Assembly (NCBI GenBank): GCA_002687715.1
Contig: NZBC01000036.1
Coordinates: forward strand, 4,322-68,321
DNA length: 64,000 nt
From: Planctomycetota bacterium
GTDB taxonomy: Bacteria > Planctomycetota > GCA-002687715
Direction of reading: 5' to 3'
The position numbers and the translations under genes are program-made. Below, one piece after another: positions 2,441-23,964 of this stretch (within the stretch, counting starts at the first letter, position 1; each line of letters starts with the position of its first letter). The notes beneath the pieces are model-generated. The model made no database searches. It saw only the letters and a program-made list of their open reading frames with translations, and was not told where the DNA came from.

Positions 2441-2548
2441 GGTTCGACTCCCGACGCGCACGTGGCCACGATCAATCGGACCGTGGTCTCCGCATGATAC
2501 GAGCGCCGTTCCCGACCTGCTCATCCGACTCGAGATCGATACCTTCCC

Positions 2549-8209: not shown

Positions 8210-9892
8210 TCACCGTCCGTCGTAGACCGTCTTCCCTCCGACCACGGTCATCACGACCTTGGTTTCGAGGATCTTCTCGTGCGGGATCGTGAAGACGTCG
8301 TGATCCAGGACGACGAAATCCGCGAGACGACCGGGCGCCAGCGATCCCTTCACGTCCTCCAGGTGCTCGCCGTACGCGCTGCCGACGGTGTAGTGGTACA
8401 CCGCCTCCCACGCAGTGAGCTTCTGCTCGGGGAACCAGCCCGTCTTCGGCTCCATGCGTTGGATGTTGGTCCGCGTGACTGCGGAGTACACACCGCGCAT
8501 CGGATCGAGCGGCTCGACGGACCAGTCCGTCCCGAATGCGAGCTTCGCCCCCGAATCGAGCAACGACCGCCAGGGGTACGCGGTCCGGCAGCGCAGCCTG
8601 CCGATCCGGGTCTCGGCAAATCGCATGTCGGTCGTGCAGTGGGTCGGTTGCATCGACGCAATGACGCCGAGACGCGCGAACCGGCGCAGGTCGTCCTTGT
8701 GGATCACCTGGGCGTGCTCGACGCGGTGCCGGCGGTCCTTCGTTCCGTTGACCCTCGCGGCGCGTTCGAACGCGTTCAACACCATGTGGACGCCCTTGTC
8801 GCCGATCGCGTGGATCCCGATCTGGAACCCGAGCCGGTCTGCCTCGACGACCATCGCGTCCAGCTTCTTCTGATTCATGGTCGGGAGACCATCGAAGTCG
8901 GGACGATCGATGAACGGGTCGAACATCGCCGCCGTGCCGTCGCCGAGCGTGCCGTCGATGTACCCCTTGAGGAAACCGACACGCACCCAGTTATCGCCCT
9001 GCCCCGTGACGACGCCGCGCTCCCCGAGCCACGCCGCCTGGCGCAACGGAAGCCAGCCCGTCCACCGCAGCGTCAGCTTGCCCTGGGCCTTCAGCTCACG
9101 AATGACCTCCATCTCCCGGAGGCTGCTGCTGGTCTGGACACTCGTGACTCCACGCCGGGCTGCGTGTCGAAAGCCGGCGATGAGGTCGGCCTCGAGCCGC
9201 TTGCGTCGCTGCTCGCGGGTCAACTGCGGACCGCGCCGCCGTCCCCGCACCAACCCTGCCGCCGACTCCAGCAGGATGCCGGTCGGCTGCCTCGTCTTGG
9301 AGTCCCGCTGGATCTCCCCCGCCGGCGGGTCCTTCGACGCGCTCGTGATCCCGCTGATCTTCAAGGCGAGCGAGTTGACCCACACCGAGTGCCCACTCGC
9401 GCGCCTCAGCACGACGGGGTTGTCGGGCGCGACCCGGTCGAGGTCCTGCTTGGTCGGCCAACGATCACCCCAGAGCGTGTGGTCGTAGCGCGACCCGTAG
9501 ATCCACTCCCCCGGCTGTGCCCGATCGACGGACTCCTTCACCAGCTTCAGGACCTTCGCCAGCGTGTCGACGCCGTAGAGGTTCAGCTGCCGCAGAAGCC
9601 GCGACCCGCCGGTGAAGTGGCTGTGACTGTCGTTGAACCCGGGCACGACCAGCTTGCCGTCGAGATCGACGACCTTGCCGCCCGGACGCATGGCCGACCT
9701 CACGTCCTCCTCGATCCCGATCGCCACGATCCGCTCGCCTCGCACCAGGACCGAGTCGGCACGCGGCACGCGACTGTCCATGGTCATGACGCGACCATTG
9801 ACGAACATGACGTCGGTCGGATCGCCGGCACTCTGCCCCCACGAAATCGCGACCAGGAGCAGACTCAACAGGGCATGACGCAACGCGGGCAT
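8210..9892 (-). CDS. secreted amidohydrolase (Amidohydro_3 family)
   Basis: 560 aa with signal peptide (LLSLLLVAISWGQSAGDP). Metal-binding HxH near the N-terminus (GFNDSHSHF), plus IGIHAIGDKG and VEHAQ motifs typical of the amidohydrolase superfamily. Confidence 0.8.
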   Translation of the reverse strand: MPALRHALLSLLLVAISWGQSAGDPTDVMFVNGRVMTMDSRVPRADSVLVRGERIVAIGIEEDVRSAMRPGGKVVDLDGKLVVPGFNDSHSHFTGGSRLLRQLNLYGVDTLAKVLKLVKESVDRAQPGEWIYGSRYDHTLWGDRWPTKQDLDRVAPDNPVVLRRASGHSVWVNSLALKISGITSASKDPPAGEIQRDSKTRQPTGILLESAAGLVRGRRRGPQLTREQRRKRLEADLIAGFRHAARRGVTSVQTSSSLREMEVIRELKAQGKLTLRWTGWLPLRQAAWLGERGVVTGQGDNWVRVGFLKGYIDGTLGDGTAAMFDPFIDRPDFDGLPTMNQKKLDAMVVEADRLGFQIGIHAIGDKGVHMVLNAFERAARVNGTKDRRHRVEHAQVIHKDDLRRFARLGVIASMQPTHCTTDMRFAETRIGRLRCRTAYPWRSLLDSGAKLAFGTDWSVEPLDPMRGVYSAVTRTNIQRMEPKTGWFPEQKLTAWEAVYHYTVGSAYGEHLEDVKGSLAPGRLADFVVLDHDVFTIPHEKILETKVVMTVVGGKTVYDGR

Positions 9893-9955
9893 GGCAAGAC
9901 CTCCAAGACATCATCATGCCAGTTCCGCTGTCGAAGGGGAGCCTGCCGGGAGCGC

Positions 9956-11443
9956 ATGCAGTACGATCCGGTCATGGGATGCCTTCTTCCGTGGTGCGTG
10001 GTCATGATCGTGACCGCGGCCTCGGCCCTGGCTTCGGCGCAGACTCCGGACGACCCTTTGGTCGTCGGCCCGCTCGAGTGCCGCACAGCGGTCACGAAGC
10101 TGCGCAACGAAATCCGGAGTGGTCGTCGCGCGGGTGAGCTCGGATGCTCGGAGCTGGCCCAGGCGATCGCGCGCACGTTCAAGAAGCTCGGGCTTCAATC
10201 AGGGGGTGACGGTCGCGATCGTTCGAATCCGTGGACGCAGCGCGTCACGTTGAAGGGAGCCGGTTGGAGCCCCGCGCGTACCTTCATCGGGGTCGTTGGG
10301 CGCGAGAAGCAGCGCGTGAGCATCGGATCGGGGTTCTCTGCAGAAGCTCCCGCCCGAATGGACGCCAAGGGGAAGCTCGCGGTCCTGTGTGTGCCGGAGA
10401 TCACCAAGGACCCCGCGCTGTCAGTAGCCCAGGTTCTGAATCGGCCCCGGCCAAGAATGAAGAAGTTCGAGATCCACGGTTCGGTCGTAATCGTGGCACC
10501 CAACCGAGAGGGCGGCGACGAGGCGGCCCACCGCGGATGCGTGTCCAAGTTGCGCAAGGCCGGCGCGAAGGCGGTCCTGTTGGTCGATTCGAAGGCACGG
10601 CTCGGCGACCTCTGCGAGACCTGGACGTTGGCGACTCGATACCGCCGCCGATCCAACCTCGCCAGCCCGCTACTGTACGTTACGAGATCCGAAGCCGAGA
10701 AGCTGGCCAAGTCGGCGAACCTGGAACTCAACCTGATCGAAGCGCAGCGTAGCGTCCACAGCGCACTCGGCGCGGGCGCGAACGCCTTCTCACGGTCCAA
10801 GAAGTCGGTGCACGTCGCCCTCGAATACCGGGTACGAAGGCACCACGACGTAAACGTCGTGGGTTGGATCGGGGGATCCGATCCGAAACTGGCCGAGGAG
10901 GTCGTCGTCGTCGTGTCCCACCTCGATCACCCGGTGCCGAAACTCCTCGGGATCACATCCGGCGACGGGCTCACCGGATGCGCCGGCCTCGTCCTGATCG
11001 CGAAGCGCCTCGCCGAGTCGAAGCCCCGACGGACGGTGGTCTTCGTCGGCGCCTCGGGGGAACACGCGGATTCTGCGGGTGCGCGCTGGTTCGCCAAGCA
11101 CCCGTCGCATCCGCTGGACAAGGTGATCGGTGTCGTCGCGCTCGGTTCTGTCGGCATTGCCGATGGGCCCCTCGAGAAGCGCCCCACAGCGCTGGCGCAC
11201 AGCGGCGCCACCGCCCTCGTCGCCCGAGTCAAGGCCTGGAACGGAGACAAGGGATTGCAGCTCGTCGAGAAGCCGACGGTCGGGTCCGCACTCGAACCGT
11301 TCAACGGCAAGCAACGACTTCTTCTCGGACTTGCCGGAGTCCCGGGCGGAGAGACGGGCAGGTGCGCCGTTGATGCCGAAGGCATGGCGCAGGCCGTCGA
11401 GCTGGCGCTGCGCGCCGTCACCGCAATCGCGAATGACCGCTGA
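9956..11443 (+). CDS. M28-family zinc aminopeptidase with PA domain
   Basis: Real coding part is the distal end of the 1054-aa track ORF (its proximal part is antisense artefact). Start at ATG 9956 (alternative ATG 9974, MGCLLPWCVVMIVTAASALA signal peptide). M28 motifs HLDH, DGLTGCAG and FVGASGEH are present. Confidence 0.7.
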   Translation: MQYDPVMGCLLPWCVVMIVTAASALASAQTPDDPLVVGPLECRTAVTKLRNEIRSGRRAGELGCSELAQAIARTFKKLGLQSGGDGRDRSNPWTQRVTLKGAGWSPARTFIGVVGREKQRVSIGSGFSAEAPARMDAKGKLAVLCVPEITKDPALSVAQVLNRPRPRMKKFEIHGSVVIVAPNREGGDEAAHRGCVSKLRKAGAKAVLLVDSKARLGDLCETWTLATRYRRRSNLASPLLYVTRSEAEKLAKSANLELNLIEAQRSVHSALGAGANAFSRSKKSVHVALEYRVRRHHDVNVVGWIGGSDPKLAEEVVVVVSHLDHPVPKLLGITSGDGLTGCAGLVLIAKRLAESKPRRTVVFVGASGEHADSAGARWFAKHPSHPLDKVIGVVALGSVGIADGPLEKRPTALAHSGATALVARVKAWNGDKGLQLVEKPTVGSALEPFNGKQRLLLGLAGVPGGETGRCAVDAEGMAQAVELALRAVTAIANDR

Positions 11444-11448
11444 TCCGC

Positions 11449-12264
11449 CTACGAGCTCGCACTCCTGACCGCGCCCGGCTCTTGGGGTAAGCCTGTCCTC
11501 GCCACCCTTCGGATCCACGCCGACGGCCAGTAGGTCACCGGGTCGCGGACCTTGCCCTCGTTGAAGCGGAAGGTCGGGGTCTGGATCTCGAACTCCGGGT
11601 GGGCGAGGACGAAGTCTCCCGCCGCGGAGGTCGGGTTGTTCGTAGCCCAGTCGGGGGCGGAGCGGGGGGCGCCCTGGAGTCCGGCCATGATGCCGTCGCA
11701 GGCAACGATGTAGGAGCCCTCGTCGACGAGGTCGTGGTAGGCATCGAGCTCGCGCTGCACGTGCTCCCGGGTGTGGCAGGAGTCGAGCAGGACGAGGACA
11801 CGCTCGCCGGGCTGGATCAAGGACTTCACTCGGGCGACGATCACCGGGTCGGTGGAGTCGCCTTCGATCATCGTGATGAGCTCGTCGGTGAGCTCGTGGG
11901 ATTCCATCGCAGCGCGGTTGTGAGGACGGATTTCCACGTCGACTCCGATGACACGACCATGACCCATCGCCTTGCAAAGGGAGGCGTGGAAGACCAGCGA
12001 GCCGCCGTGGGCGATGCCCGTCTCGACGATGACGTCGGGCTTCAGCTCGTAGATGACCTCCTGCAAGCGCACGATGTCCTCTGGGAGCTGGATGATCGGG
12101 CGGCCCATCCACGTGAAGCTGTAGACGTGCTTCGTGTCCCACCCGCAGCGCAGCCACGCCTGGGACACGATGCGGAACGCCTCGGAGCTGTCGAGCGGGT
12201 AGCTCTCCTCGACACCGTTCGACTCGGTGCACACACGACCGTTTTCGAGGTCGATCTTGATCAT
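11449..12264 (-). CDS. CmcI-family (cephalosporin-hydroxylase-like) class I SAM methyltransferase, likely sugar O-methyltransferase
   Basis: 271 aa. VETGIAHGGS SAM-binding region and overall similarity to PF04989 rhamnosyl O-methyltransferases. Its start overlaps the stop of the ketoreductase gene (ATGA). Confidence 0.7.
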   Translation of the reverse strand: MIKIDLENGRVCTESNGVEESYPLDSSEAFRIVSQAWLRCGWDTKHVYSFTWMGRPIIQLPEDIVRLQEVIYELKPDVIVETGIAHGGSLVFHASLCKAMGHGRVIGVDVEIRPHNRAAMESHELTDELITMIEGDSTDPVIVARVKSLIQPGERVLVLLDSCHTREHVQRELDAYHDLVDEGSYIVACDGIMAGLQGAPRSAPDWATNNPTSAAGDFVLAHPEFEIQTPTFRFNEGKVRDPVTYWPSAWIRRVARTGLPQEPGAVRSASS

Positions 12265-13088
12265 GTCACGCTCATCTCGGAGAGGGAGTCCTGGACCACC
12301 CGGACCATTTCCGGCAAGGCATCCACGACGGACCGGGGTCGGAAACCGAACTCATCGACGATCCGGTCGATGACCACCGCCACGTCCTCGATGCAGGGTG
12401 CATTCTCGGCGACGTCCCACCCGCAGCCGCAGATGGACGACAGCCGTTCCACGATCGCGCGATGAGTCGTGAGGGCGCCGGACGCCACGTTGTAGATCCG
12501 ATGGACCCCACGAAGCGCGATCGCCTCGATCATTGCCACGACGTCGTTCAGGTGCACATAGTCCTTGCACGACGCGGCACTCGTTCGCAGCGAGACGTGG
12601 CCGTTCACGGCCTCGCGAACGATCGACGCGAGGAAGTTGTCCGAAGCGTCGCCCGGCGCCGAGACGTTGCTCAGGCGAACGACGCGGCCCCGCATCCGCC
12701 GCGCGGACAGCGTCAGCGCCTCGCCGGCGAGCTTCGAGATGTCGTAGAGGTGATCCGAATCGCGGGGGTCCACGATGAACGCCGACTCTTCGTGCCCCGA
12801 CGGTGCTCCGCGATAGAGGCGCGCGGACGCCAGGTACGAGAACGACGCTGCGTCCCCGTCGGCCAGGACCCGCGCCGGGAGCGCCACGTGCGGTTCGGCG
12901 ACCTCCAGCGGACGATGCCGGAAGTCGGCCGTCAGCCCGGCCGCCCACACGACGTGCCCCAGCTCAGAGCCGCGCCAGCTGTCATCATCCCGCCCCGGCA
13001 CTTCCACGTCGTGGCCCTGGGTCTCGAGGTGGCGGACGAGCGCCGAGCCGATGAAGCCCCGCCCTCCGAACACCGTGAACCGCGCCAC
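12261..13088 (-). CDS. NAD(P)-dependent sugar epimerase/4-ketoreductase (short SDR-type)
   Basis: The true gene is only the distal 275 aa of the 563-aa track ORF. Start GTG 13088-13086 (VARFTVFGGRGFIGSAL, Rossmann GxxGxxG) overlaps the stop of the C-methyltransferase. The ORF has no internal Met upstream of the Rossmann fold. Confidence 0.65.
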   Translation of the reverse strand: MARFTVFGGRGFIGSALVRHLETQGHDVEVPGRDDDSWRGSELGHVVWAAGLTADFRHRPLEVAEPHVALPARVLADGDAASFSYLASARLYRGAPSGHEESAFIVDPRDSDHLYDISKLAGEALTLSARRMRGRVVRLSNVSAPGDASDNFLASIVREAVNGHVSLRTSAASCKDYVHLNDVVAMIEAIALRGVHRIYNVASGALTTHRAIVERLSSICGCGWDVAENAPCIEDVAVVIDRIVDEFGFRPRSVVDALPEMVRVVQDSLSEMSVT

Positions 13089-14356
13089 TACGGGATCACC
13101 TCGATGCGAGGAATCGGCACCACGAAGCGCCCGCCCCACGAGCGCACGAAATCCGCGCACTCGACGATCTCGTCCCGCAGGTTCCACGGCAGGATGAGCA
13201 CCCAATCCGGTCGCGCCGTCTTCAAGTACTCGACCGGGTAGACCGGGATGTGGCTGCCGGGCAGCCAGCGACCGTGTTTGCGCGGTGAACGGTCGACCGT
13301 GAACGAGACGAGGTCCCGGCCGATACCGCAGTAGTTGAGCAGCGTGTTGCCTTTCGCGGGCGCACCGTAGGCCGCGACGGCTTGGCCGCGCGCCTTGGCG
13401 TCCTCGAGGAACTTCCGCAGCCCGGTCCGCACCGAGCGTGCGCGCGCACCGAATGTCTCGTAGGTGTCCATCCGGAGGAGCCCGGCGCGGCGCTCCTCCG
13501 CGAGCACCTCGCTGACGGAAGGCCGCACCGACGGTGACGTCGCGGCGTGACCGACCCGGACCCGCAGGCTGCCGCCGTGGGTCTTCAGCCGCTCGACGTC
13601 GAACACGCTCAGCCCGACCCGCTCGAGAAGCCGCTTGGTCGCGGTCAGCGAGAGGTAGGAGAAATGCTCGTGGTAGATGGTGTCGAACTGCCCTTCGTCC
13701 ATCATCCGCAGCAAGTGCGGAAACTCGAGCGAGATCACTCCGTCGCGCGCAAGCAGGATGCGCAACCCCGAGACCAGGTCGCGAATGTCCGGGACGTGGG
13801 CGAGCACGTTGTTGGCGATGATGACGTCGGCCCGCCACCCGCGCTCGACCAGATCTCGCGCCGTTTCCTGACCGAAGAAGCGAACTTCCGTCGGGATACC
13901 CGCGGCGATCGCCACCTCGGCGACGTTGCGGCACGGGTCGACGCCAAGACACGGGATCCCGCGCGCGATGACGTTGCGGAGCAGGTAGCCATCGTTGCTC
14001 GCGATCTCGACGACCTTCGAATCCGGCCCGAGACCGCGCTCGGCGATGAGGTCGTCAACGAGCCTGGCTGCGTGATCGAGCCAGGAGTCGCTGAACGATG
14101 AGAAGTACGCGTAGTCGTCGTCGAAGAGCTCGTCCTGCGACCACACGGTCGCGATCTGCACGAGGTAGCAGTTTCCGCAGACGCGGGCGTGGAGGGGGCG
14201 CAGCCGCTCCTCTTCCGCGAGCTGATCCTCGGTCAGGTACGCGTTCGCTGACGGGTGGACACCGAGATCCGCCAGGGTGTTCGTCAACGGTGCGTCGCAG
14301 CCCCGGCACAGAACCCGTGGCTCGGCCCGGAGCATCGTCGCGGAACTCTCCCCCAT
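13088..14356 (-). CDS. NDP-hexose C-methyltransferase (TylC3/EryBIII/NovU family)
   Basis: 422 aa. N-terminal Zn-finger CRGCDAPL...CGNC. Class I MTase core (VVEIASNDGY) and C-terminal C-methyltransferase domain (AAYGAPAKGNTLLNY), characteristic of sugar C-methyltransferases. Confidence 0.75.
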   Translation of the reverse strand: MGESSATMLRAEPRVLCRGCDAPLTNTLADLGVHPSANAYLTEDQLAEEERLRPLHARVCGNCYLVQIATVWSQDELFDDDYAYFSSFSDSWLDHAARLVDDLIAERGLGPDSKVVEIASNDGYLLRNVIARGIPCLGVDPCRNVAEVAIAAGIPTEVRFFGQETARDLVERGWRADVIIANNVLAHVPDIRDLVSGLRILLARDGVISLEFPHLLRMMDEGQFDTIYHEHFSYLSLTATKRLLERVGLSVFDVERLKTHGGSLRVRVGHAATSPSVRPSVSEVLAEERRAGLLRMDTYETFGARARSVRTGLRKFLEDAKARGQAVAAYGAPAKGNTLLNYCGIGRDLVSFTVDRSPRKHGRWLPGSHIPVYPVEYLKTARPDWVLILPWNLRDEIVECADFVRSWGGRFVVPIPRIEVIP

Positions 14357-14536
14357 GTTCCAAACGTCGTCCGGGGCGAGGGTTTACGTTGAGAAAAGAT
14401 TCCCTCCGAGGCGCGCTTTGGCTCAAAACCCACCCGTGGGCTGAACGATAAGCAGAGATGGAATGAGGGAGCGGACGCTTCGGGCCGAGTTCCAGCACCG
14501 AAGGACCTCCCGAGAAGTCAGGGGAACCTCCGTCTC

Positions 14537-15361
14537 ATGAAGGTCGTGATCTTCGCTGGCGGATGGGGAACGCGTCTCGGCCAGATCGCGGATCGGGTGC
14601 CCAAACCCATGGTTCCGATCGGTGGACAATCCATCCTGCGGCACATCATGAACGCCTACGCCTGGCACGGGTACAAGGACTTCGTCCTGTGCCTGGGCGT
14701 CAAGGGCGACGCGATCCGCGCGTACTTCGAGAACCTCCCGGCGTATAGCCGCGACTTCACGATCGACCTCGCGACGGGCCGCAAGACGCTCCACGGCGCG
14801 TCGGAGCCGGTCCTCGACTGGAACGTGACCCTTGCCGGGACCGGGCTCAATACACTCAAGGGCGGACGGCTCAAGAAGGTCGGACGCTACCTCGACAGCG
14901 AGCACCACTTCCTGACCTACGGCGACGGCCTCGCCGACGTCGACCTGCAGGCGCTGCTCGCGTTCCACAAACGCCACGGCAAGTTGCTCACCATCACCGG
15001 AGTACATCCTCCGTCACGCTACGGAGAGATGGAAGAGCGCCGGGGCCGGGTGACCGCGTTCGCCGAGAAGGCGAGCTCTAGCCAGTGGATCAACGGCGGC
15101 TACATGGTCTTCCGACGCGGCTTGCTCGACTGGCTGACGACGGACGACGGGTGCGACTTCGAGAACGGGGTCGTATCCGAACTCGCGGGCCACGGCGAGG
15201 TCGCAATGTACCGCCACGTCGGCCCATGGATCGGCATGGATCACGAGCAGGACGTCCACGAGCTGGAGCGGCTACTCGCCGACGGCAGAGCATTCTGGAA
15301 GCCGTGGGAACGCGTGAAAGAGACCGCCGCCGTCTCGGCAAGTGACGAGCGTGCGTTCTGA
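14537..15361 (+). CDS. rfbF: glucose-1-phosphate cytidylyltransferase
   Basis: MKVVIFAGGWGTRLG...PKPMVPIGG nucleotidyltransferase signature, size 274 aa, and overall similarity to RfbF/DdhA. Confidence 0.85.
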   Translation: MKVVIFAGGWGTRLGQIADRVPKPMVPIGGQSILRHIMNAYAWHGYKDFVLCLGVKGDAIRAYFENLPAYSRDFTIDLATGRKTLHGASEPVLDWNVTLAGTGLNTLKGGRLKKVGRYLDSEHHFLTYGDGLADVDLQALLAFHKRHGKLLTITGVHPPSRYGEMEERRGRVTAFAEKASSSQWINGGYMVFRRGLLDWLTTDDGCDFENGVVSELAGHGEVAMYRHVGPWIGMDHEQDVHELERLLADGRAFWKPWERVKETAAVSASDERAF

Positions 15362-15371
15362 AGGGGAGATC

Positions 15372-16397
15372 ATGCGCGTACTCGTTACAGGACACCGCGG
15401 CTACATCGGGCCCTGGGTCGTCCGTCTGTTCAAGGACGCCGGCCACGAAGTGGTTGGCGTCGACGTCGGGTTGTTCGAGGGATGCGCATTCGAACCGTTG
15501 CCCTATGCCGACGCGGAGTGGTCCCGCGACTTCCGCGACCTGTCGGTACGGGACCTGGCTTCGTTCGACGCGATCGTCCACCTCGCGGCGATCTCCAACG
15601 ATCCGATGGGTGAACTCGACCCGGGCCTCACGCGGGCCGTCAATCTCGAGGGCTCCGTCGCGCTCGCCGAGTGCGCTCGCGACGCGGGGGTGAGCCGGTT
15701 CCTCTTCTCGGGCAGCTGCTCCGTGCACGGCAAGGGCGGCGACGACGCGCCCGCCGACGAGTCGTCACCGGTGCAGCCGTTGTCGGTGTACGCCGAGAGC
15801 AAGGTCCTCGCCGAGACGCGTATTGGCGCGCTCGCCCAGCCCGGATTCTCTCCGGTATTCCTGCGCAACGCGACGGCCTTCGGTCACTCGCCGATGTTGC
15901 GGATCGACCTCGTGGTGAACAACCTGCTCGCGTGTGCAGTGGCCCGAGGCGAGATCCGCATCCACTCCGACGGGTCTCCGTGGCGTCCATTGATCCACTG
16001 CCGGGACATCGCAGCCGCGCTCCTCGCGATCGCAGAAGCACCGGTCGAGCTCACCCACGGACTGGCGATCAACGTCGGCGATGACGGGCAGAACTACCGC
16101 GTCAAGGACGTGGCCGATGTCGTAGGCAACCTCGTCCCCACGGCCCGCGTCATCTACACCGGTGAGGCCGTCGACGACCCACGGGACTACCGCGTCTCGT
16201 TCTCGCGCCTCCGGCGGCTGCTCCCCGCATTCGCACCCCTCTACGATCTGCGCACTGGCGCGGAGGATCTCCTCCGACGCCTGCAGCAGCGCGGGTTCCG
16301 TCAGACTGATTTCGATAGTCCTCGCTACGTGCGCCTCCGCACCCTGCAGCGACGCGGCGAGGTCGCGGAACTACGTTACGAAAAGAGCTCGGTATGA
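15372..16397 (+). CDS. CDP-glucose 4,6-dehydratase-like NAD-dependent epimerase/dehydratase
   Basis: Start at ATG 15372 after a GGGGAG Shine-Dalgarno. MRVLVTGHRGYIGPWVV mirrors the RfbG motif VFVTGHTGFKGSWL. Extended-SDR size (341 aa). Sits between rfbF and the RmlC-like gene. Confidence 0.7.
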   Translation: MRVLVTGHRGYIGPWVVRLFKDAGHEVVGVDVGLFEGCAFEPLPYADAEWSRDFRDLSVRDLASFDAIVHLAAISNDPMGELDPGLTRAVNLEGSVALAECARDAGVSRFLFSGSCSVHGKGGDDAPADESSPVQPLSVYAESKVLAETRIGALAQPGFSPVFLRNATAFGHSPMLRIDLVVNNLLACAVARGEIRIHSDGSPWRPLIHCRDIAAALLAIAEAPVELTHGLAINVGDDGQNYRVKDVADVVGNLVPTARVIYTGEAVDDPRDYRVSFSRLRRLLPAFAPLYDLRTGAEDLLRRLQQRGFRQTDFDSPRYVRLRTLQRRGEVAELRYEKSSV

Positions 16398-16948
16398 GAT
16401 TCGTAGGAACAGGACTCCAGGGCGCATGGATCATCGAGACGGAGTCGCACGAGGACACTCGTGGGTCGTTCGCTCGTACGTTCTGCGCGCGAGAATTCCG
16501 CGAGCGCAGACTCGAATCGCGGATGGTCCAATCCAGCATCTCGCGGAACCAGCTCCGGCACACCCTGCGTGGGCTGCACTGGCAGGCGGGCGCGGCTGGA
16601 GAAGCCAAGCTGATCCACTGCGTCCGAGGCGAGATCCTCGACGTTCTCGTCGACCTCCGGCGGGGGTCACCCACGTTTGGTCGCCACGAGAAGGTCGTCC
16701 TGTCGGAAGACAACCAGCGCATGGTGTACGTTCCGCGTGGGTTCGCGCACGGGTTCCTCACGCTGCGCGACGACACGTGGGTCTCCTATCAGATGACCAA
16801 TCACTACGCGCCGCAGAGCGCGCGCGGCCTGAAGTGGAACGACCCTCACCTCATCATCGCGTGGCCAGTCGACCAGCCGCGGGTGTCCGATCAGGACGCC
16901 AACTGGCCGGACTTCGAACCAGCAGCCATCACGGCCGAGATGCCATGA
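16394..16948 (+). CDS. NDP-4-keto-6-deoxyhexose 3,5-epimerase (RmlC-like cupin)
   Basis: 184 aa. Conserved RmlC-type motifs (ETRGSF, SRN.LRG.H, YVP.GFAHGF, Y...Y). Confidence 0.8.
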   Translation: MRFVGTGLQGAWIIETESHEDTRGSFARTFCAREFRERRLESRMVQSSISRNQLRHTLRGLHWQAGAAGEAKLIHCVRGEILDVLVDLRRGSPTFGRHEKVVLSEDNQRMVYVPRGFAHGFLTLRDDTWVSYQMTNHYAPQSARGLKWNDPHLIIAWPVDQPRVSDQDANWPDFEPAAITAEMP

Positions 16949-17901
16949 ACGCCCGCGTCACTGTGATCATCCCGGCCACCGAAGGCGCCGACCGGATTGC
17001 CCGACTCGTCGCGTACTGGCACGGCCGTCTCGTCCGCATCATCCTCTGTGACGGCTCGCCGGACGGATTCTCGATCGCGGCGACGAAACCGACGCTGCAT
17101 CTACGTCGGCCGGGGTCGACGTGGATCGATCTCGTCGCTGACGGCGTTGCTCGCGTCCAAACCGACTACGCGCTCGTGTGCGACACGGATGTGTTCGTGA
17201 CCCCGACCGCGATCGGCTCCGCGATCGCGTGGCTCGACGTCCACCCCGGGCACGCGGCCGTTCAGGGACGCCACCTGCGTGCCATTCACGGCGCCGATGA
17301 TGTCCAGTTCGAGCCGTGTGAGATCCTGGGCGGGCTGCAGATGGTCTCGGCGGAGTGCCCGTCGGTCCGCGTACAGCAGATCTTCGACCCCTACCTGCAC
17401 GTCGTCACCGCGCTCCATCGGACGGAGACGCTGCGAGACGCGTTCTGTGGATTCCTGCGTGGAACATGTATCTCGGCCCGAGCGCTCGCCGAGCTACTGC
17501 TGGCGATGATCACGGCCGTCAACGGCAAGGTCCGCGTCTTGCCGGTGCCCTGGTGCGTGCGAGAGGTCTCCCACTCGGGCGAGACGACAAGCCCCACGCC
17601 GAGCCTGCTCACCCTGCTCGATGACCCCGACGCCGCCGACCAGATCGATCGCTTCCTGGGATCAGCCATCGTTCACCTCATGAACCGCGCCGACGTCCCG
17701 CAGGGGGACGCGCGAACGAGCGTGGGCAGTGCCCTGGACGTCTATCTCAACCGCTACTTGCCGCGCCTGCACCGACACCGCCTGCTTCCAGCGGTCGAAC
17801 GTGCTGCCCGCTCACTCACTCATCGCGGGTACCCCTCGGACGACCACGAAGATCTGGTGGCGATCCGCGCAGCGCTCTTGGGCGCCGTGGTCCAGGCCTA
17901 G
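16945..17901 (+). CDS. putative glycosyltransferase (GT2-like)
   Basis: True start MNARVTVIIPATEG at ATG 16945 overlaps the rmlC-like stop (ATGA). The upstream part of the 579-aa track ORF is non-coding. N-terminus resembles GT-A fold transferases, with an acidic DTD motif. Confidence 0.5.
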   Translation: MNARVTVIIPATEGADRIARLVAYWHGRLVRIILCDGSPDGFSIAATKPTLHLRRPGSTWIDLVADGVARVQTDYALVCDTDVFVTPTAIGSAIAWLDVHPGHAAVQGRHLRAIHGADDVQFEPCEILGGLQMVSAECPSVRVQQIFDPYLHVVTALHRTETLRDAFCGFLRGTCISARALAELLLAMITAVNGKVRVLPVPWCVREVSHSGETTSPTPSLLTLLDDPDAADQIDRFLGSAIVHLMNRADVPQGDARTSVGSALDVYLNRYLPRLHRHRLLPAVERAARSLTHRGYPSDDHEDLVAIRAALLGAVVQA

Positions 17902-18902
17902 CCCTGCGACGGGTCCTCTCGGAGGAGCCGGATCAGCGCGAGGAGGAACTCCGCGTGGACCTCGCCGTAGTGGCGCAGGCTGCACAGAAGCCGATTGGCA
18001 CGTCTGAGCTTGTAGCCACCAGCGGGATGGACGTCTTCCATGGCGCGTTCCCTCTCGACGCCCGGGAGCGGGTTCATCTCCACGCTCAACGCCACCGCAC
18101 CCCGCACACGTCCGAACCAGTCCATGGTGAGGCCGCGCCGACTGGGTCCGCTCATCTCGAACGCGAGACTGTGCGGGTAGACCATGCTCTCGTAGATCGC
18201 GCAGATGTCGGCGTAGCGTTTCCGCTGATCCTTCGGGGGGTATTTCGGATGGATGATGAGGTTCGCGGAGGTGTGGTAGCTGATCGCGAGGTCGATAGGG
18301 CCGACCCGTTTCCAGAACGCCATGACCGCCTGCGTTTCCGGCTCGGGTACGGAGACGTGCTCCGCGATCGATCGGCCGTCGATCGTGACTGCCTTGATCG
18401 GATAGTTGCGGTTGAGGTCGACGTCGTGAACGTTGTTGCGGTGATGCGGAAACGGCGGTCGCATCCCGCGGTGGAGGCCGTCGGGATTCAGCACCGGCGC
18501 AAGGTAGAGGCGGATTCGAGAAAGCCAGGCGGGAGGCTTGCCTTCGCCGATGGCCCGCCGCAGGTGCTCAGCGACCGCGAGCGCGGGGCGCTGGCTACCG
18601 AGCTCACCGCCGTGGATCGCACCGTCGATCCAGTAACCCTTCTTCTTTCCCGTCGCTTGTGTATCGGTCACGACCAGGCACGGGAGGGGCCGCCCCTGCA
18701 CGGAGTGGCCCATGATCTCGACGGAGAACCAGCGCGGCGCAGCTTCCTCGAGCGTCCGGAACCATGCCAACACCATCGAGACGTCATAGAAGCGGTCCAC
18801 GGCCAGTTCGGCGTCAACGACTCGACCCGACGTCGGCGCGTCTGCGCAACCCAGCAGCAGGACAGCCAACAGAGGCAGCAAGAGCACCCACCGACTGATC
18901 AA
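17898..18902 (-). CDS. M14 zinc carboxypeptidase lipoprotein (MpaA / gamma-D-Glu-DAP peptidase-like)
   Basis: Lipoprotein signal (LLAVLLLGCADAP). M14 motifs HGGE, NPDG..R and ISYHT. 334 aa. Confidence 0.7.
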   Translation of the reverse strand: MISRWVLLLPLLAVLLLGCADAPTSGRVVDAELAVDRFYDVSMVLAWFRTLEEAAPRWFSVEIMGHSVQGRPLPCLVVTDTQATGKKKGYWIDGAIHGGELGSQRPALAVAEHLRRAIGEGKPPAWLSRIRLYLAPVLNPDGLHRGMRPPFPHHRNNVHDVDLNRNYPIKAVTIDGRSIAEHVSVPEPETQAVMAFWKRVGPIDLAISYHTSANLIIHPKYPPKDQRKRYADICAIYESMVYPHSLAFEMSGPSRRGLTMDWFGRVRGAVALSVEMNPLPGVERERAMEDVHPAGGYKLRRANRLLCSLRHYGEVHAEFLLALIRLLREDPSQG

Positions 18903-19585
18903 GATCCGCCCTCCTTCAAGTCCATTCCGGTGCGCCGAACCACCTGACCTGCCGCGGCCGCCACGAGGCGCCGCACGACGCCGAGCCCGAGGTCCTCATC
19001 CGCCGTTCGTTCCGGATGCCACTGCACTCCGAGCCAGAATCGGCGCGACGGATCGAGAATGGCCTCGATGACGCCATCCGGAGCCCGCGCGACGACTTCA
19101 AGGCCGCCGGGTGTGGCGAGCGCCTGATGGTGCGCGCTCGTGACCGGCCCAGCAAGGTGCGTACCCTCGACCAGGTGGACATGGTCGTTCGTGTGCAGCT
19201 GGGGACGGTCGAGGACGTCGTCGAGGTGCTGCTCGAGTCTCGCGCCGGCCCGCAGACCCATGAGCTGCATCCCGAGGCACACGCCGAGCGCGGGGAGATC
19301 GCTGGCGTAGCACTGCGCGAGCAACGCGAGGTCCGATTCCTGGCGACGCGGGTCCATCAGCCTCGCTGCGGGATGGGTGGACTGACCGAACGCCTCCGTC
19401 GCCGGATCGCGGCCGCCGGTGAACAGCACCCCGTCGCATCGCTCCGCCAAGGCCGACGCGCCGCGACCAACGGGAAGGATCATCGAATCGCCGCCCGCCC
19501 TCTCGATGGCGCGAACGTAGTCGGCGCCAACGGTGAGGCAGTCGTCCCGGAGGTCCGCGGTAAGTCCGATGACGGGGCGGGTCAT
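18899..19585 (-). CDS. class I glutamine amidotransferase-like peptidase C26 (gamma-glutamyl hydrolase family)
   Basis: 228 aa. Catalytic GVCLGMQ and WHPE motifs of PuuD-like gamma-glutamyl-GABA hydrolases. ATGA overlap with the M14 gene. Confidence 0.8.
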   Translation of the reverse strand: MTRPVIGLTADLRDDCLTVGADYVRAIERAGGDSMILPVGRGASALAERCDGVLFTGGRDPATEAFGQSTHPAARLMDPRRQESDLALLAQCYASDLPALGVCLGMQLMGLRAGARLEQHLDDVLDRPQLHTNDHVHLVEGTHLAGPVTSAHHQALATPGGLEVVARAPDGVIEAILDPSRRFWLGVQWHPERTADEDLGLGVVRRLVAAAAGQVVRRTGMDLKEGGS

Positions 19586-19589
19586 GCCC

Positions 19590-20570
19590 TCATGTGATCA
19601 TGAACTGGCTGCGACCGGTACCCTTCGCCAGGCTGTCGTAGACCGCGCGATGGGACGGAGCAGCCTCGCGCAGGCGCGGCAACCCGCAATCGGAGGCGTC
19701 GGCGAGCAACTTCTGGAGGAAGACGCCCGTTGACTCGCTCACCGGCAGACTGCCGATCGGGTGTTCCACGTCGTGGACGAGATCGTGGAGGGTGCCCTCG
19801 TTTTCCTCGAGGACGAAGACGGGCGCGCCCGACTCCTTGTCGCGTACGGTGATTCGAATGGGGCCGGGGCCGAACCCGTCGCCGCCGCAGACCAGCGTCA
19901 GCGTGTCGCCGTGTGGAACGCGGAACGTGGCGGAGCCAACGAACTCCTCGAACTCGGGGCCGCGACGAGAGAACTCGGGCGCCGCCTCGATGATCGCAGC
20001 CGTACACGCGATCGATTCCGCGCCGGCGGCGAAACGGAACGCCTCGACGAGGTGCACCGAATTACAACCGTACCCCCAGCCCTCCCCCGTCACGAGCATG
20101 TGAAACGGACCGGGGCGTTCAGCGAGCCCGTCGCGCAGCCGCCGCCATCCCTCGAACAGGTTGCGGACGCAGTTGACGTAGATCCGTTTCTCAGAGATGG
20201 CGCCCGAGTAGGTCGCGATGATCGACTCCAGCGCCTCCGGAGACTGGGCGGCTGGCTTCTCGACGAGTACGGCCCGCGGAGCCATGGCCGCGATCCCTTC
20301 GACGACCTCCGGCTGGCGATCCGCAGTGACCGCCGCGATCGCGCACCCGATGCCGTTGCCGTTGATCGCGCTCTCAGCGTCGTCGAGGCCGGACACCACA
20401 TCCACCTCGACCTCGGAGAGCTCTCCCGCAAGCCCGAGGATGTCGTTCCGCCGGGTTTGCCGTGGCTCGACCACGACAATGCGTCCGATCGACGGCACGC
20501 CCGCCGCCGCCTGGACATGACGCCAGCCGATGTCTCCACAACCGACGATGAGGACGGTCGCTCTGGTCAT
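19590..20570 (-). CDS. Gfo/Idh/MocA-family NAD(P)-dependent oxidoreductase
   Basis: Start re-assigned to MTRATVLIVGCGDIGWRH (Rossmann). 326 aa. Confidence 0.7.
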   Translation of the reverse strand: MTRATVLIVGCGDIGWRHVQAAAGVPSIGRIVVVEPRQTRRNDILGLAGELSEVEVDVVSGLDDAESAINGNGIGCAIAAVTADRQPEVVEGIAAMAPRAVLVEKPAAQSPEALESIIATYSGAISEKRIYVNCVRNLFEGWRRLRDGLAERPGPFHMLVTGEGWGYGCNSVHLVEAFRFAAGAESIACTAAIIEAAPEFSRRGPEFEEFVGSATFRVPHGDTLTLVCGGDGFGPGPIRITVRDKESGAPVFVLEENEGTLHDLVHDVEHPIGSLPVSESTGVFLQKLLADASDCGLPRLREAAPSHRAVYDSLAKGTGRSQFMIT

Positions 20571-20586
20571 GGATCGAAGGCTCTGG

Positions 20587-21549
20587 TCATGAAGCGTAGC
20601 CAGCGATCGTCTCGATGATCGCCAGGGTCTCCGCGAAGGTACGAAGTTGGGGCAAGACACTGGGGGACGTGGGCCGCTCCCGTAGTCCGTCGAACGCCTC
20701 CACCGTGCGCCAGACGCCCGGCTTCCAGTCGGTGTCCAGGCTGTCGGTAGGGGGGATCTCGGTCCACGCCACGGTGCCGGGTCGCATCACGAACAGACGC
20801 TCCATCGGCGCCAGACGATACCGACCCTGGCGCGTCCGCACCTCGATCGACCACCGTCCGGGAGCGATCCAACTCGACGACCAGGTCACCGGCACGGCAG
20901 TACAACGTCCGCTTCCCACGAAGGTCGCGCCTGCCGGATGCCAGGTCAACGCCCCCGGGTCGCCAACCGTCACATGGTCGGGTCGCAACGGTCCCAGCAG
21001 GTGCTCGACCGTGTCGATGACATGAATCGAGTTCGCGAGGGCCCACCGCTCCAGCACGTCCGCGCGGCGTCCACTGGTCGCGACGCGATCGGCCCATTCG
21101 GTGAAGTCGAACCTAGCGCACAGCGGCGCTTCGTCGTCCAGGATCGCACGGAGGGCAACCACCGATCCGAAGTACCGCCGGTTGGTCGCGATCCGTACGA
21201 GCGCGCCGACCTCCTCGGCCCGGTCCGCGAGCCCACGCAGCGCACCGGCGGACATCGCCCCGGGCTTCTCCAGCAGCATCTCGCGTGCACCGAGATCGAG
21301 CAGGCGGGTCGCCACCGGGTCGAGGCTCTCCGGCGTGGTGGCGACGATCGTCCAGGCGGACTCCGCGACCGTCCCGGCGTCGAGGTCTTCGAGCAGGACA
21401 TGGTCGACCGCGCCCGTCTCGTCCGCGAATACCGCGGTCCGGCCGGGGTCGCGTGCCACCACGCGGAAGGACGTTCCCCGCCCACGCAACACGCGTGCAT
21501 ACTCGCGGGCCATCGGCCCGGAACCGACGAGGAGGACGGAAGGCAGCAT
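20587..21549 (-). CDS. Gfo/Idh/MocA-family NAD(P)-dependent oxidoreductase (paralog)
   Basis: Start re-assigned to MLPSVLLVGSGPMAREYARVL (Rossmann). 320 aa. Tandem with the previous gene. Confidence 0.7.
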   Translation of the reverse strand: MLPSVLLVGSGPMAREYARVLRGRGTSFRVVARDPGRTAVFADETGAVDHVLLEDLDAGTVAESAWTIVATTPESLDPVATRLLDLGAREMLLEKPGAMSAGALRGLADRAEEVGALVRIATNRRYFGSVVALRAILDDEAPLCARFDFTEWADRVATSGRRADVLERWALANSIHVIDTVEHLLGPLRPDHVTVGDPGALTWHPAGATFVGSGRCTAVPVTWSSSWIAPGRWSIEVRTRQGRYRLAPMERLFVMRPGTVAWTEIPPTDSLDTDWKPGVWRTVEAFDGLRERPTSPSVLPQLRTFAETLAIIETIAGYAS

Positions 21550-21657
21550 GGATTCTCTTCGTGTTTCATCGGCCAAGAGCACCGTTCGAGGCACTGTCGC
21601 GAATATCGACGGCCGCGGGACGTGGCGGCACGGCGGGCGAGAGCATATCCTCGCGCG

Positions 21658-23964
21658 ATGCGCGTCTTCCTCCTCCTCTTCCTGCTCCCGCTTCCGACCG
21701 CCGGGGCCCAGACACCGCTGGCCAGGGATCTCGCCGCTGCGGCTGACCGCGCGATGGCCGCCGGACATGCGCCTGGGGTCGTCATCCGAGCGCAGCAACT
21801 CGACGGAGCGGTCGACGTCACGGTCGTACGGGGCGTGGCGGCCGAGGCCCCAGCCCGCGAAACGTGGAACGAAGGCTCGCTACCAGCTACCGGCCGCACG
21901 TTCGACCTGGCCTCGCTCACGAAGTGTGTCGCGACCGCGACCTGCGTGATGAAGCTCGTCGAAGAAGGTCGCTTGAAGCTGTCGGACCGCGCGGCGGATC
22001 ACCTGCCCGGGTTCGGGGTCAATGGCAAGGACGTCATCACCGTCGAACAGCTCCTGCGGCATCGCGGCGGCCTTCTGCCCGATAACCGGCTCGCCGACTA
22101 TCGCGACGGCGCGAGGCTGGCTCGCAAGCGCATCTACGCGCTCGGACTGCGAGCGGCACCGGGCACGCGGTACATCTACACCGACGTCGGCTTCATCGTG
22201 CTTGCCTGGATCGTAGAGAAGGTGACGGAGCAGCCGTTCGACGCCTACGCGAAGGCCGCGGTCTTCGCCCCGTGCGGCATGGCCCACACCGGGTTCCTGC
22301 GTGGCGGTGCGCCCAAGGCAGCGTGGTCAGCTCGTTCCATTCCGACCGAACCGGCGCGCGAGGGCGGAGCGCCGCTGCGGGGCGTGGTCCACGATCCGCG
22401 CGCCCGGCTGCTCGGCGGAGTCGCCGGTCACGCCGGCTTGTTCTCCACGATCGACGACCTCTCGCGCTACGCCCGCATGATCCTGCGCGGCGGCGTCGCC
22501 GACGACGGCACGCGCGTTCTCACGGCCGCGACCATCCGCCTCATGGGACGGTGCGGGCCCCTCCCCCGCCTGGAACGCCGGGGACTGGGCTTCGACCTGC
22601 GCCCGCTCGCGTTCACTCGCAAGGGCCCACGCGGACGTCACTTCCCGGACGGGACCTTCGGCCACACGGGGTTCACGGGCACGTCCATGTGGATGGACCC
22701 CGCGTCGAAGAGCTACGTGATCGTCCTGACCTCGCGTCTGCATCCCGACGGGCGCGGCGACGTCTCGCAACTCCGCTACGACGTCGGCACCGCGGTCGCG
22801 AAGGCCCTCGATCCACGCCCGTGGGCGCTGCGCCTCGGTCCCGCGCGCTCAGGGCTGCAGCGCATCGCCGACGGTGAGGTCTTGCCGGCGCTCACCGGCA
22901 AACGGATTGGCCTCATCACCAACCACACCGCTCGCGACCGCACGGGTGCATCGGCGATCGAGCGGCTGCACCCTCACGGACTCCGCGCGCTCTTCTCCCC
23001 GGAGCACGGCATCGCCGGCAAGTTCGACGCGCGCGTCGGCGACGCGGTCGATCCGCTGACCGGGCTGAAGATCCACAGCCTCTACCAGAAGGACCGCCGG
23101 CGGCCGTCGAAAGCGGCTCTGAAAGACCTCGACGTACTCGTGTTCGACATCCAGGACATCGGCACCCGGTTCTACACCTACGTCTCGACCATGGTGAACT
23201 GCATGGAGGAAGCGTCCCGAAACGGGTTGTCGTTCGTCGTACTCGACCGTCCCAATCCGATCGGCGTCGCCGTCGAGGGTCCGATCGCGAACGACGACGC
23301 CCTGGACTTCGTCGGTCGACTGCGGATTCCCATCCGCCACGGCATGACGGTCGGGGAACTCGCGCGCCTCGCGAAGCAGGACCTGAAGCTCGATCTCGAC
23401 CTCCAGGTCGTGGCCGTCAAGGACTGGTCACCCAATCAGTACCTCGACGATACCGGGCAACGCTGGGTCAACCCCTCCCCCAACATGCGCTCCATGGCGG
23501 CTGCGCTTCTCTACCCGGGTATCGGCATCCTCGAGACGACGAACCTCTCGGTCGGTCGCGGCACGAAGACTCCGTTCGAGCACGTTGGCGCTCCCTGGAT
23601 GAACGGCGAGGCGATCGCCAACGACCTCCGCGCCGCCGCCCTCGACGGCATCACCTTTTCCCCGGTGACCTTCACTCCCACCTCGAGCAAGTACCGCGGC
23701 AAGCGCTGCTCCGGAGTCCGCTTCGCCATCACCGATCGCACTGCACTGCGCCCGATTCGTGTCGGCCTGACCCTCGCCACCGCACTGCGGAAACACCACC
23801 CCGTCCAGTGGGACACCGCCCGCCTCGGACGCCTGCTCAAGCACCGCAAGACGCTCATCGCGATCCGGCGTGGCCGCGGAGTCACGGATATCGAGAAGAC
23901 GTGGACGTCCGAGGTCGCCGCGTTCCGGGAACGACGCAAGGCGGCTCTGATCTACGCTCGCTGA
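21658..23964 (+). CDS. fusion protein: beta-lactamase-fold serine hydrolase (AmiE/AmpH-like) + DUF1343 (NamZ-like exo-beta-N-acetylmuramidase)
   Basis: True start MRVFLLLFLLPLPTAGAQ (signal peptide) at 21658. N-terminal domain has SLTK (SxxK) and YxN-like motifs of class C/PBP4 beta-lactamase-fold enzymes. The C-terminal ~400 aa match DUF1343 (GKRIGLITNHTA ... DIQDIGTRFYTY ... NLSVGRGT). Confidence 0.75.
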   Translation: MRVFLLLFLLPLPTAGAQTPLARDLAAAADRAMAAGHAPGVVIRAQQLDGAVDVTVVRGVAAEAPARETWNEGSLPATGRTFDLASLTKCVATATCVMKLVEEGRLKLSDRAADHLPGFGVNGKDVITVEQLLRHRGGLLPDNRLADYRDGARLARKRIYALGLRAAPGTRYIYTDVGFIVLAWIVEKVTEQPFDAYAKAAVFAPCGMAHTGFLRGGAPKAAWSARSIPTEPAREGGAPLRGVVHDPRARLLGGVAGHAGLFSTIDDLSRYARMILRGGVADDGTRVLTAATIRLMGRCGPLPRLERRGLGFDLRPLAFTRKGPRGRHFPDGTFGHTGFTGTSMWMDPASKSYVIVLTSRLHPDGRGDVSQLRYDVGTAVAKALDPRPWALRLGPARSGLQRIADGEVLPALTGKRIGLITNHTARDRTGASAIERLHPHGLRALFSPEHGIAGKFDARVGDAVDPLTGLKIHSLYQKDRRRPSKAALKDLDVLVFDIQDIGTRFYTYVSTMVNCMEEASRNGLSFVVLDRPNPIGVAVEGPIANDDALDFVGRLRIPIRHGMTVGELARLAKQDLKLDLDLQVVAVKDWSPNQYLDDTGQRWVNPSPNMRSMAAALLYPGIGILETTNLSVGRGTKTPFEHVGAPWMNGEAIANDLRAAALDGITFSPVTFTPTSSKYRGKRCSGVRFAITDRTALRPIRVGLTLATALRKHHPVQWDTARLGRLLKHRKTLIAIRRGRGVTDIEKTWTSEVAAFRERRKAALIYAR

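Follow-up and report, generated by a model that had tools for sequence, protein, structure and literature searches.

How does a bacterium build a methylated nucleotide sugar when the gene sitting where a 4,6-dehydratase is expected encodes an enzyme that lacks the catalytic residues of such a dehydratase? The question is raised by a cluster of seven genes in a 64,000-nucleotide stretch of contig NZBC01000036.1 (the whole stretch is called the window below), which comes from a marine Planctomycetota genome assembled from metagenome and has ~66% G+C. Codon-bias gene calling places the seven genes, denoted A to G, so that they fill positions 11449–17901 exactly, both ends being the stop codons of the outermost genes. 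A preliminary description of the locus had given the same limits and had read the cluster as a route through RfbF and an RfbG-like 4,6-dehydratase to a C-branched, O-methylated 6-deoxyhexose linked to cytidine diphosphate (CDP). Its broad idea was right, the cluster is real and coherent, and six of the seven gene labels stand; its product can be named with less confidence, and such pathways occur far more widely, than that description held. What is new is a CDP-sugar tailoring cassette in which a short-chain dehydrogenase/reductase (SDR) resembling Cj1427 takes the place of RfbG.

The gene in question, E (15372–16397, plus strand), encodes a 341-amino-acid extended SDR of a large unnamed family. 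It had been labeled an RfbG-like 4,6-dehydratase, and this label had to be given up. E gave no match at E≤1e-3 to TIGR02622, the model for RfbG (cutoff 278.45 bits), on which the slot-equivalent genes of two related cassettes reach 473 bits (locus L010) and 509 bits (locus L011); among NCBIfam models E matches GalE best, at 81 bits. An alignment then set E beside E. coli RmlB, Gmd, GalE and Fcl, a pair of canonical RfbG proteins and a dehydratase-like SDR scoring under the RfbG cutoff, for comparison of the catalytic triplet, defined as the three residues starting at the catalytic Ser/Thr. The triplet reads T-D-E in RmlB, T-S-E in Gmd, S-D-K in both RfbG proteins and in the third, dehydratase-like SDR, S-A-T in GalE and T-N-S in Cj1427. 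In E it reads S-C-S, a triplet that does not vary among 20 members of the family (E included) drawn from many phyla, so that neither position of the acid/base dyad holds a carboxylate or a lysine. Even TunA, a related 5,6-dehydratase SDR that eliminates the 6-hydroxyl, keeps its glutamate there (T-C-E). The other recognizable motifs of E, Y140-A-E-S-K144 and a GHRGYIG glycine loop, are generic to extended SDRs. Besides Cys116 of the triplet, Asp77, Arg165 and Asp179 are invariant. The GH(R)G variant of that loop is common to E, RfbG and Fcl, and is said to be tied to exchangeable cofactor binding in work on the Yersinia CDP-glucose dehydratase. Asp31, which follows the second strand, suggests a preference for NAD over NADPH.

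The closest solved relative of E is Cj1427, by three measures. It is the top PDB sequence match (87 bits by phmmer), the only PDB chain reached at E≤1e-25 by a profile of the E family (123.6 bits) and the first-ranked Foldseek match (TM 0.78–0.88), RmlB not appearing until after rank 30. Cj1427 oxidizes GDP-heptose at C4 without dehydration, its bound NADH being regenerated by alpha-ketoglutarate, and the 4-keto product is then passed on, to an epimerase of the cupin type and a reductase of the SDR type (PMC10680097). The S-C-S residues in place of the dyad, the glutamate retained by TunA and the proximity of Cj1427 by sequence, profile and fold are our grounds for favoring, among the possible roles of E, that of a non-dehydrating, NAD-dependent C4 dehydrogenase of the Cj1427 kind, by which the oxygen at C6 (O6) would stay in place. 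Because E is not RfbG, the term '6-deoxy' in the predicted product is an inference and not an observation: there is good support for a CDP-linked hexose with C-methyl and O-methyl groups as the product, but its description as a 6-deoxyhexose rested on the failed RfbG label.

The genomic company that E keeps is consistent with an early, C4-oxidizing role. Homologues of E at E≤1e-20 number more than 7,000 among the matches listed, all under generic names; the best 120 are ~55–72% identical, and the family holds to ~60% identity across phyla. We examined 80 E-family loci from many phyla, counting neighbors within 6 kb, and found an RfbF-like gene in 55, RmlC in 44, a C-methyltransferase in 35 and a 310-amino-acid SDR without the dyad ('Red') in 14; canonical RfbG was found in none (0/80). 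The typical operons run D-E-F-Red, or D-E-F and then an RmlD-like gene, and in most of the 80 loci E lies directly after the RfbF-like gene and before RmlC, which is why we regard it as the probable C4-oxidizing entry to the pathway. This is the position of RmlB in the rhamnose operon, and equally that of Cj1427 in the heptose operon. A stricter argument, that E is the only SDR in its cassettes and so must both oxidize and re-reduce, was ruled out by the RmlD-like gene in L014 and a 286-amino-acid SDR detected with Pfam in L015; that 33 of 58 E loci have no second extended SDR within 6 kb in a panel of 20 queries is weak evidence, since other reductase families are possible.

In six Solirubrobacterales loci (L044, L049, L051, L054, L056 and L077) E adjoins a bona fide dehydratase with a T-D-K triplet, which suggests that the two enzymes are not redundant. 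The pair, E and an ASTDKAYG dehydratase, is always divergent, lies at ~11.0–12.2 kb in each locus and is kept even where RfbF and the C-methyltransferase are not nearby. These loci also raise an alternative that we consider unlikely, in which E acts late, as a 4-ketoreductase or 4-epimerase, on a 4-keto (6-deoxy) intermediate made by a dehydratase encoded elsewhere in the genome. There, RfbF, the T-D-K dehydratase, the C-methyltransferase and RmlC are all present and E is an extra SDR, and the GH(R)G loop that E has in common with the reductase Fcl would fit such a function. In the window, however, B already serves as a reductase, and no dehydratase is found in the 64 kb, nor in the D-E-F-Red cassettes, whose second SDR also lacks the dyad. 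The NAD preference that Asp31 seems to indicate, and a D-E-F gene order that mirrors RmlA-RmlB-RmlC, likewise speak against a late role.

To see what a cassette of this kind usually contains, one can start from A, whose homologues at E≤1e-20 also number more than 7,000 among the matches listed. Identity of A to this very large family is 62–74%, the best matches standing at ~65%, and the best 120 homologues of A and of E fall within 55–75%. In related cassettes A always adjoins a short SDR, and its usual co-linear home comprises RfbF, a dehydratase, a C-methyltransferase, RmlC, a 162-amino-acid hexapeptide O-acetyltransferase, a short SDR and CmcI. We saw this standard cassette in Microcoleus (L009), Rhodospirillaceae SYSU D60014 (L010) and Gallionella (L011), and it is spread, without a tie to antibiotic clusters, through many metagenomes as well as cyanobacteria and Proteobacteria. 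A partial version is present in Sinorhizobium meliloti as SMb21416-18 (ddhA, ddhB and an NDP-hexose 3-C-methyltransferase, NDP standing for nucleoside diphosphate), and a CDP route with a C-methyltransferase is also annotated on the pSymB replicon of that organism (PMC4053727). The claim that such a sugar would be unusual outside secondary metabolism is thus contradicted by the abundance of A and E and by where the standard cassette occurs: a cassette so common in environmental bacteria is neither an oddity of secondary metabolism nor an import from it.

The window shares with the standard cassette clear orthologues of A, B, C, D and F (40–65% identity) and differs from it in having a Cj1427-like SDR for RfbG, no acetyltransferase, an extra TIGR04440 glycosyltransferase and two divergent operons. 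In 80 sampled metagenome loci of A, the dehydratase slot held canonical RfbG in ~19 and a 332-amino-acid, S-D-K dehydratase-like SDR (211 bits, against the RfbG cutoff) in ~12, and never an E-type SDR. The window is a rare hybrid, joining a D-E-F module that is common with Cj1427-like SDRs to a C-B-A module that normally accompanies a true CDP-glucose 4,6-dehydratase. The same list of parts recurs only in the lineage of the window itself and on plasmid p6 of Azospirillum lipoferum 4B, which carries CmcI, the short SDR, rfbF, the C-methyltransferase, E and the TIGR04440 glycosyltransferase. We had hoped to place C, D and F with one type of cassette by identity, and dropped this approach: they are equally close to the partners of RfbG-type and of E-type cassettes, and identity does not segregate them. 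In one A-type cassette (L093:5933-9982) no dehydratase could be detected in the interval from RfbF to the C-methyltransferase; it carries, between RmlC and the short SDR, a 360-amino-acid protein and a 465-amino-acid protein with a Cys-rich CxxxCxxC-like motif, and after the short SDR a 246-amino-acid protein, all three without annotation in any search.

Several of these observations weigh against retention of O6. In ~30 related cassettes the place of E is held by RfbG or by an S-D-K SDR. A (62–65% identity) and B (40–48%) are orthologous to cassette enzymes that act on 6-deoxy sugars, and E and Cj1427 are only 28% identical. In two Bacteroidota loci (L014 and L022) E and RmlC are followed by an RmlD-like reductase, giving the operon the look of a rhamnose pathway. 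In addition, L-hexoses that retain O6 are rare in described bacterial glycans, in which 6-deoxy-L-hexoses are common, and the invariant Cys116 of E could serve as an unconventional base. A final point concerns the nucleotide: the match of D to the RfbF model lies under that model's cutoff of 300.25 bits, which makes CTP specificity a tentative assignment.

Most of these points favor the reading closest to the preliminary description, in which E is an unconventional CDP-glucose 4,6-dehydratase that has replaced RfbG non-orthologously, perhaps with Cys116 as its base. Its product would be a CDP-6-deoxy-3-C-methyl-O-methyl-L-hexose resembling vinelose. E sits exactly in the slot of RfbG or the S-D-K SDR in otherwise homologous cassettes, canonical RfbG accompanies it nowhere among the 80 E loci, and the similarity of A, B, C, D and F to the partners of RfbG equals that to the partners of E; the RmlD-like reductases of L014 and L022, and a conservation across phyla as extreme as that often seen in multi-step enzymes, point the same way. 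Set against this are the missing carboxylate and lysine at both dyad positions, the contrast with TunA, a nearest characterized relative that does not dehydrate, and the six loci in which E-type and T-D-K dehydratase genes adjoin. We therefore hold an unconventional dehydratase to be a possible but tentative explanation, and put the probability of the whole pathway as proposed, with E as a C4 oxidase that keeps O6, at about 0.45; the small remainder is divided between a late action of E, as reductase or epimerase, and a cluster that does not function. CDP-vinelose (6-deoxy-3-C-methyl-2-O-methyl-L-talose) was reportedly isolated from Azotobacter vinelandii in the 1960s. A literature search found no mention of vinelose, and we treat it as a lead and not as the known product. 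StrP/StrQ/StrX of streptomycin biosynthesis, considered as a precedent for a CDP-glucose route that keeps O6, were also not used, as the only paper found contained no enzymology.

The proposal that E oxidizes C4 without dehydration fits into a seven-step scheme. In the first step D, with CTP and glucose-1-phosphate, would form CDP-glucose. D (14537–15361, plus strand; 274 amino acids) is an RfbF-like sugar-1-phosphate cytidylyltransferase that matches TIGR02623 (RfbF) over its full length at 248.9 bits and aligns end to end with S. typhi RfbF (PDB 1tzf, 213 bits), and its nearest relatives (46–49% identity) are partners of canonical RfbG, those scoring 473–509 bits on TIGR02622. The full-length RfbF match and this pairing are the basis on which we consider a CDP route probable, as the preliminary description had it, although, given the sub-cutoff score, we class D as RfbF-like. 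E would then oxidize C4, the least certain step; F, by means of its His/Tyr pair, would epimerize C5 of the 4-keto sugar, or both C3 and C5; C would add the methyl group of S-adenosylmethionine (SAM) to a carbon beside the ketone, most likely C3; B would reduce C4; A would O-methylate a hydroxyl; and G would pass the finished sugar to an acceptor. With O6 kept, the product would be a C-methyl, O-methyl L-hexose and not a 6-deoxyhexose.

The logic of the scheme is chemical as well as genomic. Cupin epimerases and C-methyltransferases both work through an enolate beside a C4 ketone, which calls for an oxidizing SDR before them and a reducing SDR after them. B and E are the only extended SDRs in the window, which leaves E as the sole candidate oxidase and B as the sole candidate reductase. 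The translational coupling of the genes, and their co-occurrence on A. lipoferum 4B p6 and on two related Planctomycete contigs, argue that they belong to one pathway, and support the view that a single modified nucleotide sugar is both made and transferred by the cluster. The analysis observed directly how the genes are ordered, which families they belong to, their catalytic motifs, their folds and their comparative context, and from these we infer every substrate, the order in which F, C, B and A act, the regiochemistry and the acceptor.

For the enzymes other than D and E, the family labels given earlier are borne out. F (16394–16948, plus strand; 184 amino acids) is an RmlC-type 3,5- (or 5-) epimerase that scores 171.2 bits on TIGR01221, over the cutoff of 155.75, conserves all four catalytic residues of E. 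coli RfbC (His62, Lys72, Tyr132 and Asp168) and lies much nearer to RmlC (146 bits) than to epimerases of the Cj1430 type (~55–68 bits). C is encoded on the minus strand at 13088–14356, with its ATG at 14356 (422 amino acids), or at 13088–14335 (415 amino acids). It belongs to the TylC3 family of sugar C-methyltransferases: it has all three domains, PF08421 (zinc-binding), PF13489 and PF08484, its zinc cysteines C17, C20, C60 and C63 are visible in the sequence, and over residues 11–422 it matches the PDB entries for MtmC (4rv9, 271 bits), KijD1 (259 bits) and TcaB9 (~250–253 bits). Every solved relative of C is a C3 enzyme, there being no structure of a C5 enzyme for comparison. B (12261–13088, minus strand; 275 amino acids, GTG start) is a short extended SDR matching PF01370; along its whole length it shares 40–48% identity, and the motifs GLTADFR, LYLSSxR and LYxxSK, with the short SDR of RfbG-type cassettes, and as their orthologue it is proposed to be an NDP-4-keto-sugar 4-reductase.

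A (11449–12264, minus strand; 271 amino acids), the last gene of its operon, is a SAM-dependent methyltransferase of the CmcI/RMNT family, matching PF04989 at 228.3 bits (cutoff 23.2) over model positions 2–206 of 206. Its score on the rhamnosyl O-methyltransferase equivalog NF045824 is 76.7 bits, under the cutoff of 400, and its score against CmcI structures is 42 bits; NCBI record MAG55177.1 labels it 'hydroxylase'. We propose, from this family membership, that A is a sugar O-methyltransferase. G (16945–17901, plus strand; 318 amino acids) was described as a GT2-like transferase, and although it gave no match to any Pfam model, GT2 included, it scores 82.7 bits on TIGR04440 (cutoff 70). An AlphaFold2 model of G built with 34 homologues (pLDDT 93.5) has a predicted GT-A fold whose Foldseek matches are WrtF, SpsA, TarP and TarS (E 2e-11 to 1e-8) and also RmlT, and its DxD motif (D80-T-D82) is conserved.

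The two related Planctomycete contigs, L175 and L176, show which parts of the cluster vary. Both carry A-B and, divergently, D-E-F-G, with an E that is 70% (L175) and 72% (L176) identical to that of the window. G keeps its place as fourth gene of D-E-F-G in both, yet evolves fastest, at only 39–41% identity. C is absent from L175 (locus L175:8174-9180); in L176 it is cut to a 143-amino-acid remnant of its C-terminal domain (L176:2473-2904, minus strand) that is 41% identical to C, neighboring proteins being 53–74% identical. This loss and decay of C in relatives identify C-methylation as a decoration that is optional and has varied recently, added to an O-methyl-hexose pathway that is itself conserved, and suggest that the lineage has recently gained or lost it. 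Beside the cassette, L175:1-7213 holds genes of nonulosonic-acid type (a DegT aminotransferase, a CBS-nucleotidyltransferase and NeuB), and a carbamoyltransferase, a PhyH dioxygenase and a methyltransferase are also near, so that the L175 cassette seems to lie within a larger glycosylation island.

That parts are dispensable in this lineage might also mean that the cluster of the window is a chance juxtaposition, or a decaying remnant, with no single working pathway. We consider this very improbable, as none of the seven open reading frames (ORFs) is broken and their codon bias is normal, translational coupling links the genes, the catalytic residues are conserved and identical copies of the cluster are present on at least nine metagenome contigs.

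As to the acceptor, the preliminary description had named flagellin as one candidate, and the gene neighborhoods speak against it. The flagellin of the window, a short one of 276 amino acids (55760–56590, plus strand), is 38 kb from the sugar cluster, and a flagellin gene lies within the 10-kb flanks of none of 27 A-type loci and of one of 73 E-type loci, so we dropped a general link between these cassettes and flagellin. One related cassette (L010) does sit inside a flagellar locus, between fliW and the flagellin gene. Glycosyltransferases with tetratricopeptide repeats (TPR) are neighbors in only 4 of the 27 A-type loci. Lipopolysaccharide, exopolysaccharide, an S-layer or another glycoprotein are equally possible acceptors. 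The flagellar cluster of the window (37941–58168) comprises fliE, fliF, fliG, fliH, fliI, fliJ, motA, two motB-like genes and fliL, together with two sigma-54 activators, a histidine kinase and, after the flagellin gene, fliD (56807–58168, plus strand).

The arrangement of the sugar genes into two back-to-back operons, C-B-A and D-E-F-G, was confirmed from the sequence. The 180 bp between them (14357–14536) are presumed to be a promoter region shared by both; a scan of this region for sigma-70-type promoters and terminators found none, the sigma-70 consensus saying little for a Planctomycete. ATGA/GTGA coupling had been said to run throughout. It is near-complete: the B/A, E/F and F/G junctions are ATGA overlaps and C and B overlap by 1 nucleotide (TAGTG), but D and E are separated by 10 nucleotides, which hold a Shine-Dalgarno-like AGGGGAG site. 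A start of E at 15342, as in the ORF list, found no support, as homologues begin with MRVLVTGH, corresponding to 15372. Also rejected, as high-G+C artifacts that are antisense or out of frame, were ORFs at 8279–11443 (plus strand, 1054 amino acids) and 16162–17901 (plus strand, 579 amino acids); the real genes there are an amidohydrolase (8210–9892, minus strand), an M28 peptidase (~9956–11443, plus strand), F and G. The same sequence is found on a 74.6-kb ENA contig and a Tara Oceans scaffold, and the gene calls on public contigs agree; the cluster proteins are MAG55177.1–MAG55183.1 in NCBI, under 'Planctomycetes bacterium'.

The genes on either side are unrelated to the cluster (the M28 peptidase, an M14 carboxypeptidase, a C26 peptidase, two GFO/IDH/MocA oxidoreductases and a NamZ fusion), which makes it an isolated island outside any large polysaccharide locus. 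The C26 gamma-glutamyl peptidase and the two GFO/IDH/MocA oxidoreductases lie downstream (18899–21549, minus strand) and are syntenic at L175:15936-18547; GFO/IDH/MocA enzymes can be sugar-nucleotide oxidoreductases, and a link of this pair to the pathway is conceivable. The ORF at 20974–23964 (plus strand) joins a beta-lactamase/penicillin-binding-like domain to both domains of a NamZ exo-beta-N-acetylmuramidase, the public call being shorter, at 768 amino acids. Further away are a 1205-amino-acid sulfatase-domain protein (29513–33130, plus strand), a regulator of the BlaI/penicillinase-repressor family (33615–34028, minus strand) and DUF1570 and HEAT-repeat proteins at 1412–4651, all of which fit a Planctomycetota origin.

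In our view the most interesting object here is the E family itself, a huge SDR family in the 4,6-dehydratase slot without the catalytic residues of a 4,6-dehydratase, which may mean either a new dehydratase mechanism or a new branch of 6-hydroxy CDP-sugars. With a likelihood somewhat short of even, it may be a very large, uncharacterized family of CDP-hexose C4 dehydrogenases, forming a second, O6-keeping route parallel to that of RfbG. If so, thousands of environmental bacteria make L-hexoses never described in glycans; if E dehydrates, it would represent a new mechanistic class of 4,6-dehydratase without a carboxylate dyad. In either case its function bears on the annotation of thousands of 'NAD-dependent epimerase/dehydratase' genes. 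Surface-glycan sugars with C-methyl branches are known, among them 3-C-methyl-rhamnose, 3-C-methyl-mannose and virenose (PMC7203242, PMC9912281, PMC3539893). Such sugars are counted as rare, yet genes for CDP-linked C- and O-methyl sugars are very common in environmental genomes, where they have no biochemical assignment, and a C-methyltransferase that is intact, decayed or missing from one close relative to the next suggests that the surface sugar diversifies rapidly.

The cluster combines features of several known systems. With the CDP-3,6-dideoxyhexose pathways of Salmonella and Yersinia (RfbF/DdhA and RfbG/DdhB, with AscE and AscF for ascarylose) it has in common a cytidylyltransferase entry and, as in the ascarylose route, an RmlC-like epimerase (the 5-epimerase AscE) and an SDR reductase (AscF) for a CDP-4-keto sugar; unlike them, it lacks canonical RfbG and the DdhC/DdhD genes for 3-deoxygenation and adds a C-methyltransferase and CmcI. 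The C-methylation of dTDP-sugars in antibiotic biosynthesis (TylC3, MtmC, TcaB9 and KijD1, as well as the epimerase EvaD and the routes to nogalose and noviose; dTDP is deoxythymidine diphosphate) offers the same architecture and zinc site as C, and a 4-keto sugar as its expected substrate, whereas the cluster has a CDP context, no genes for 2- or 3-deoxygenation or amination, and a location outside any natural-product cluster. A belongs over its full length to PF04989, the Pfam family that also holds CmcI and the mycobacterial rhamnosyl O-methyltransferase, but it reaches only the low scores against them reported above. A parallel in logic is the GDP-heptose pathway of Campylobacter jejuni, in which HddC, Cj1427, the 3,5-epimerase Cj1430 and the C4 reductase Cj1428 carry out what appear to be the same four steps, namely nucleotidyl transfer, oxidation by a non-dehydrating SDR, epimerization by a cupin and reduction by an SDR. 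The window differs from that pathway in its CDP-hexose context and in the motifs of the enzyme at its center, where E has GHRGYIG for the GGAGYIG of Cj1427 and S-C-S for its T-N-S.

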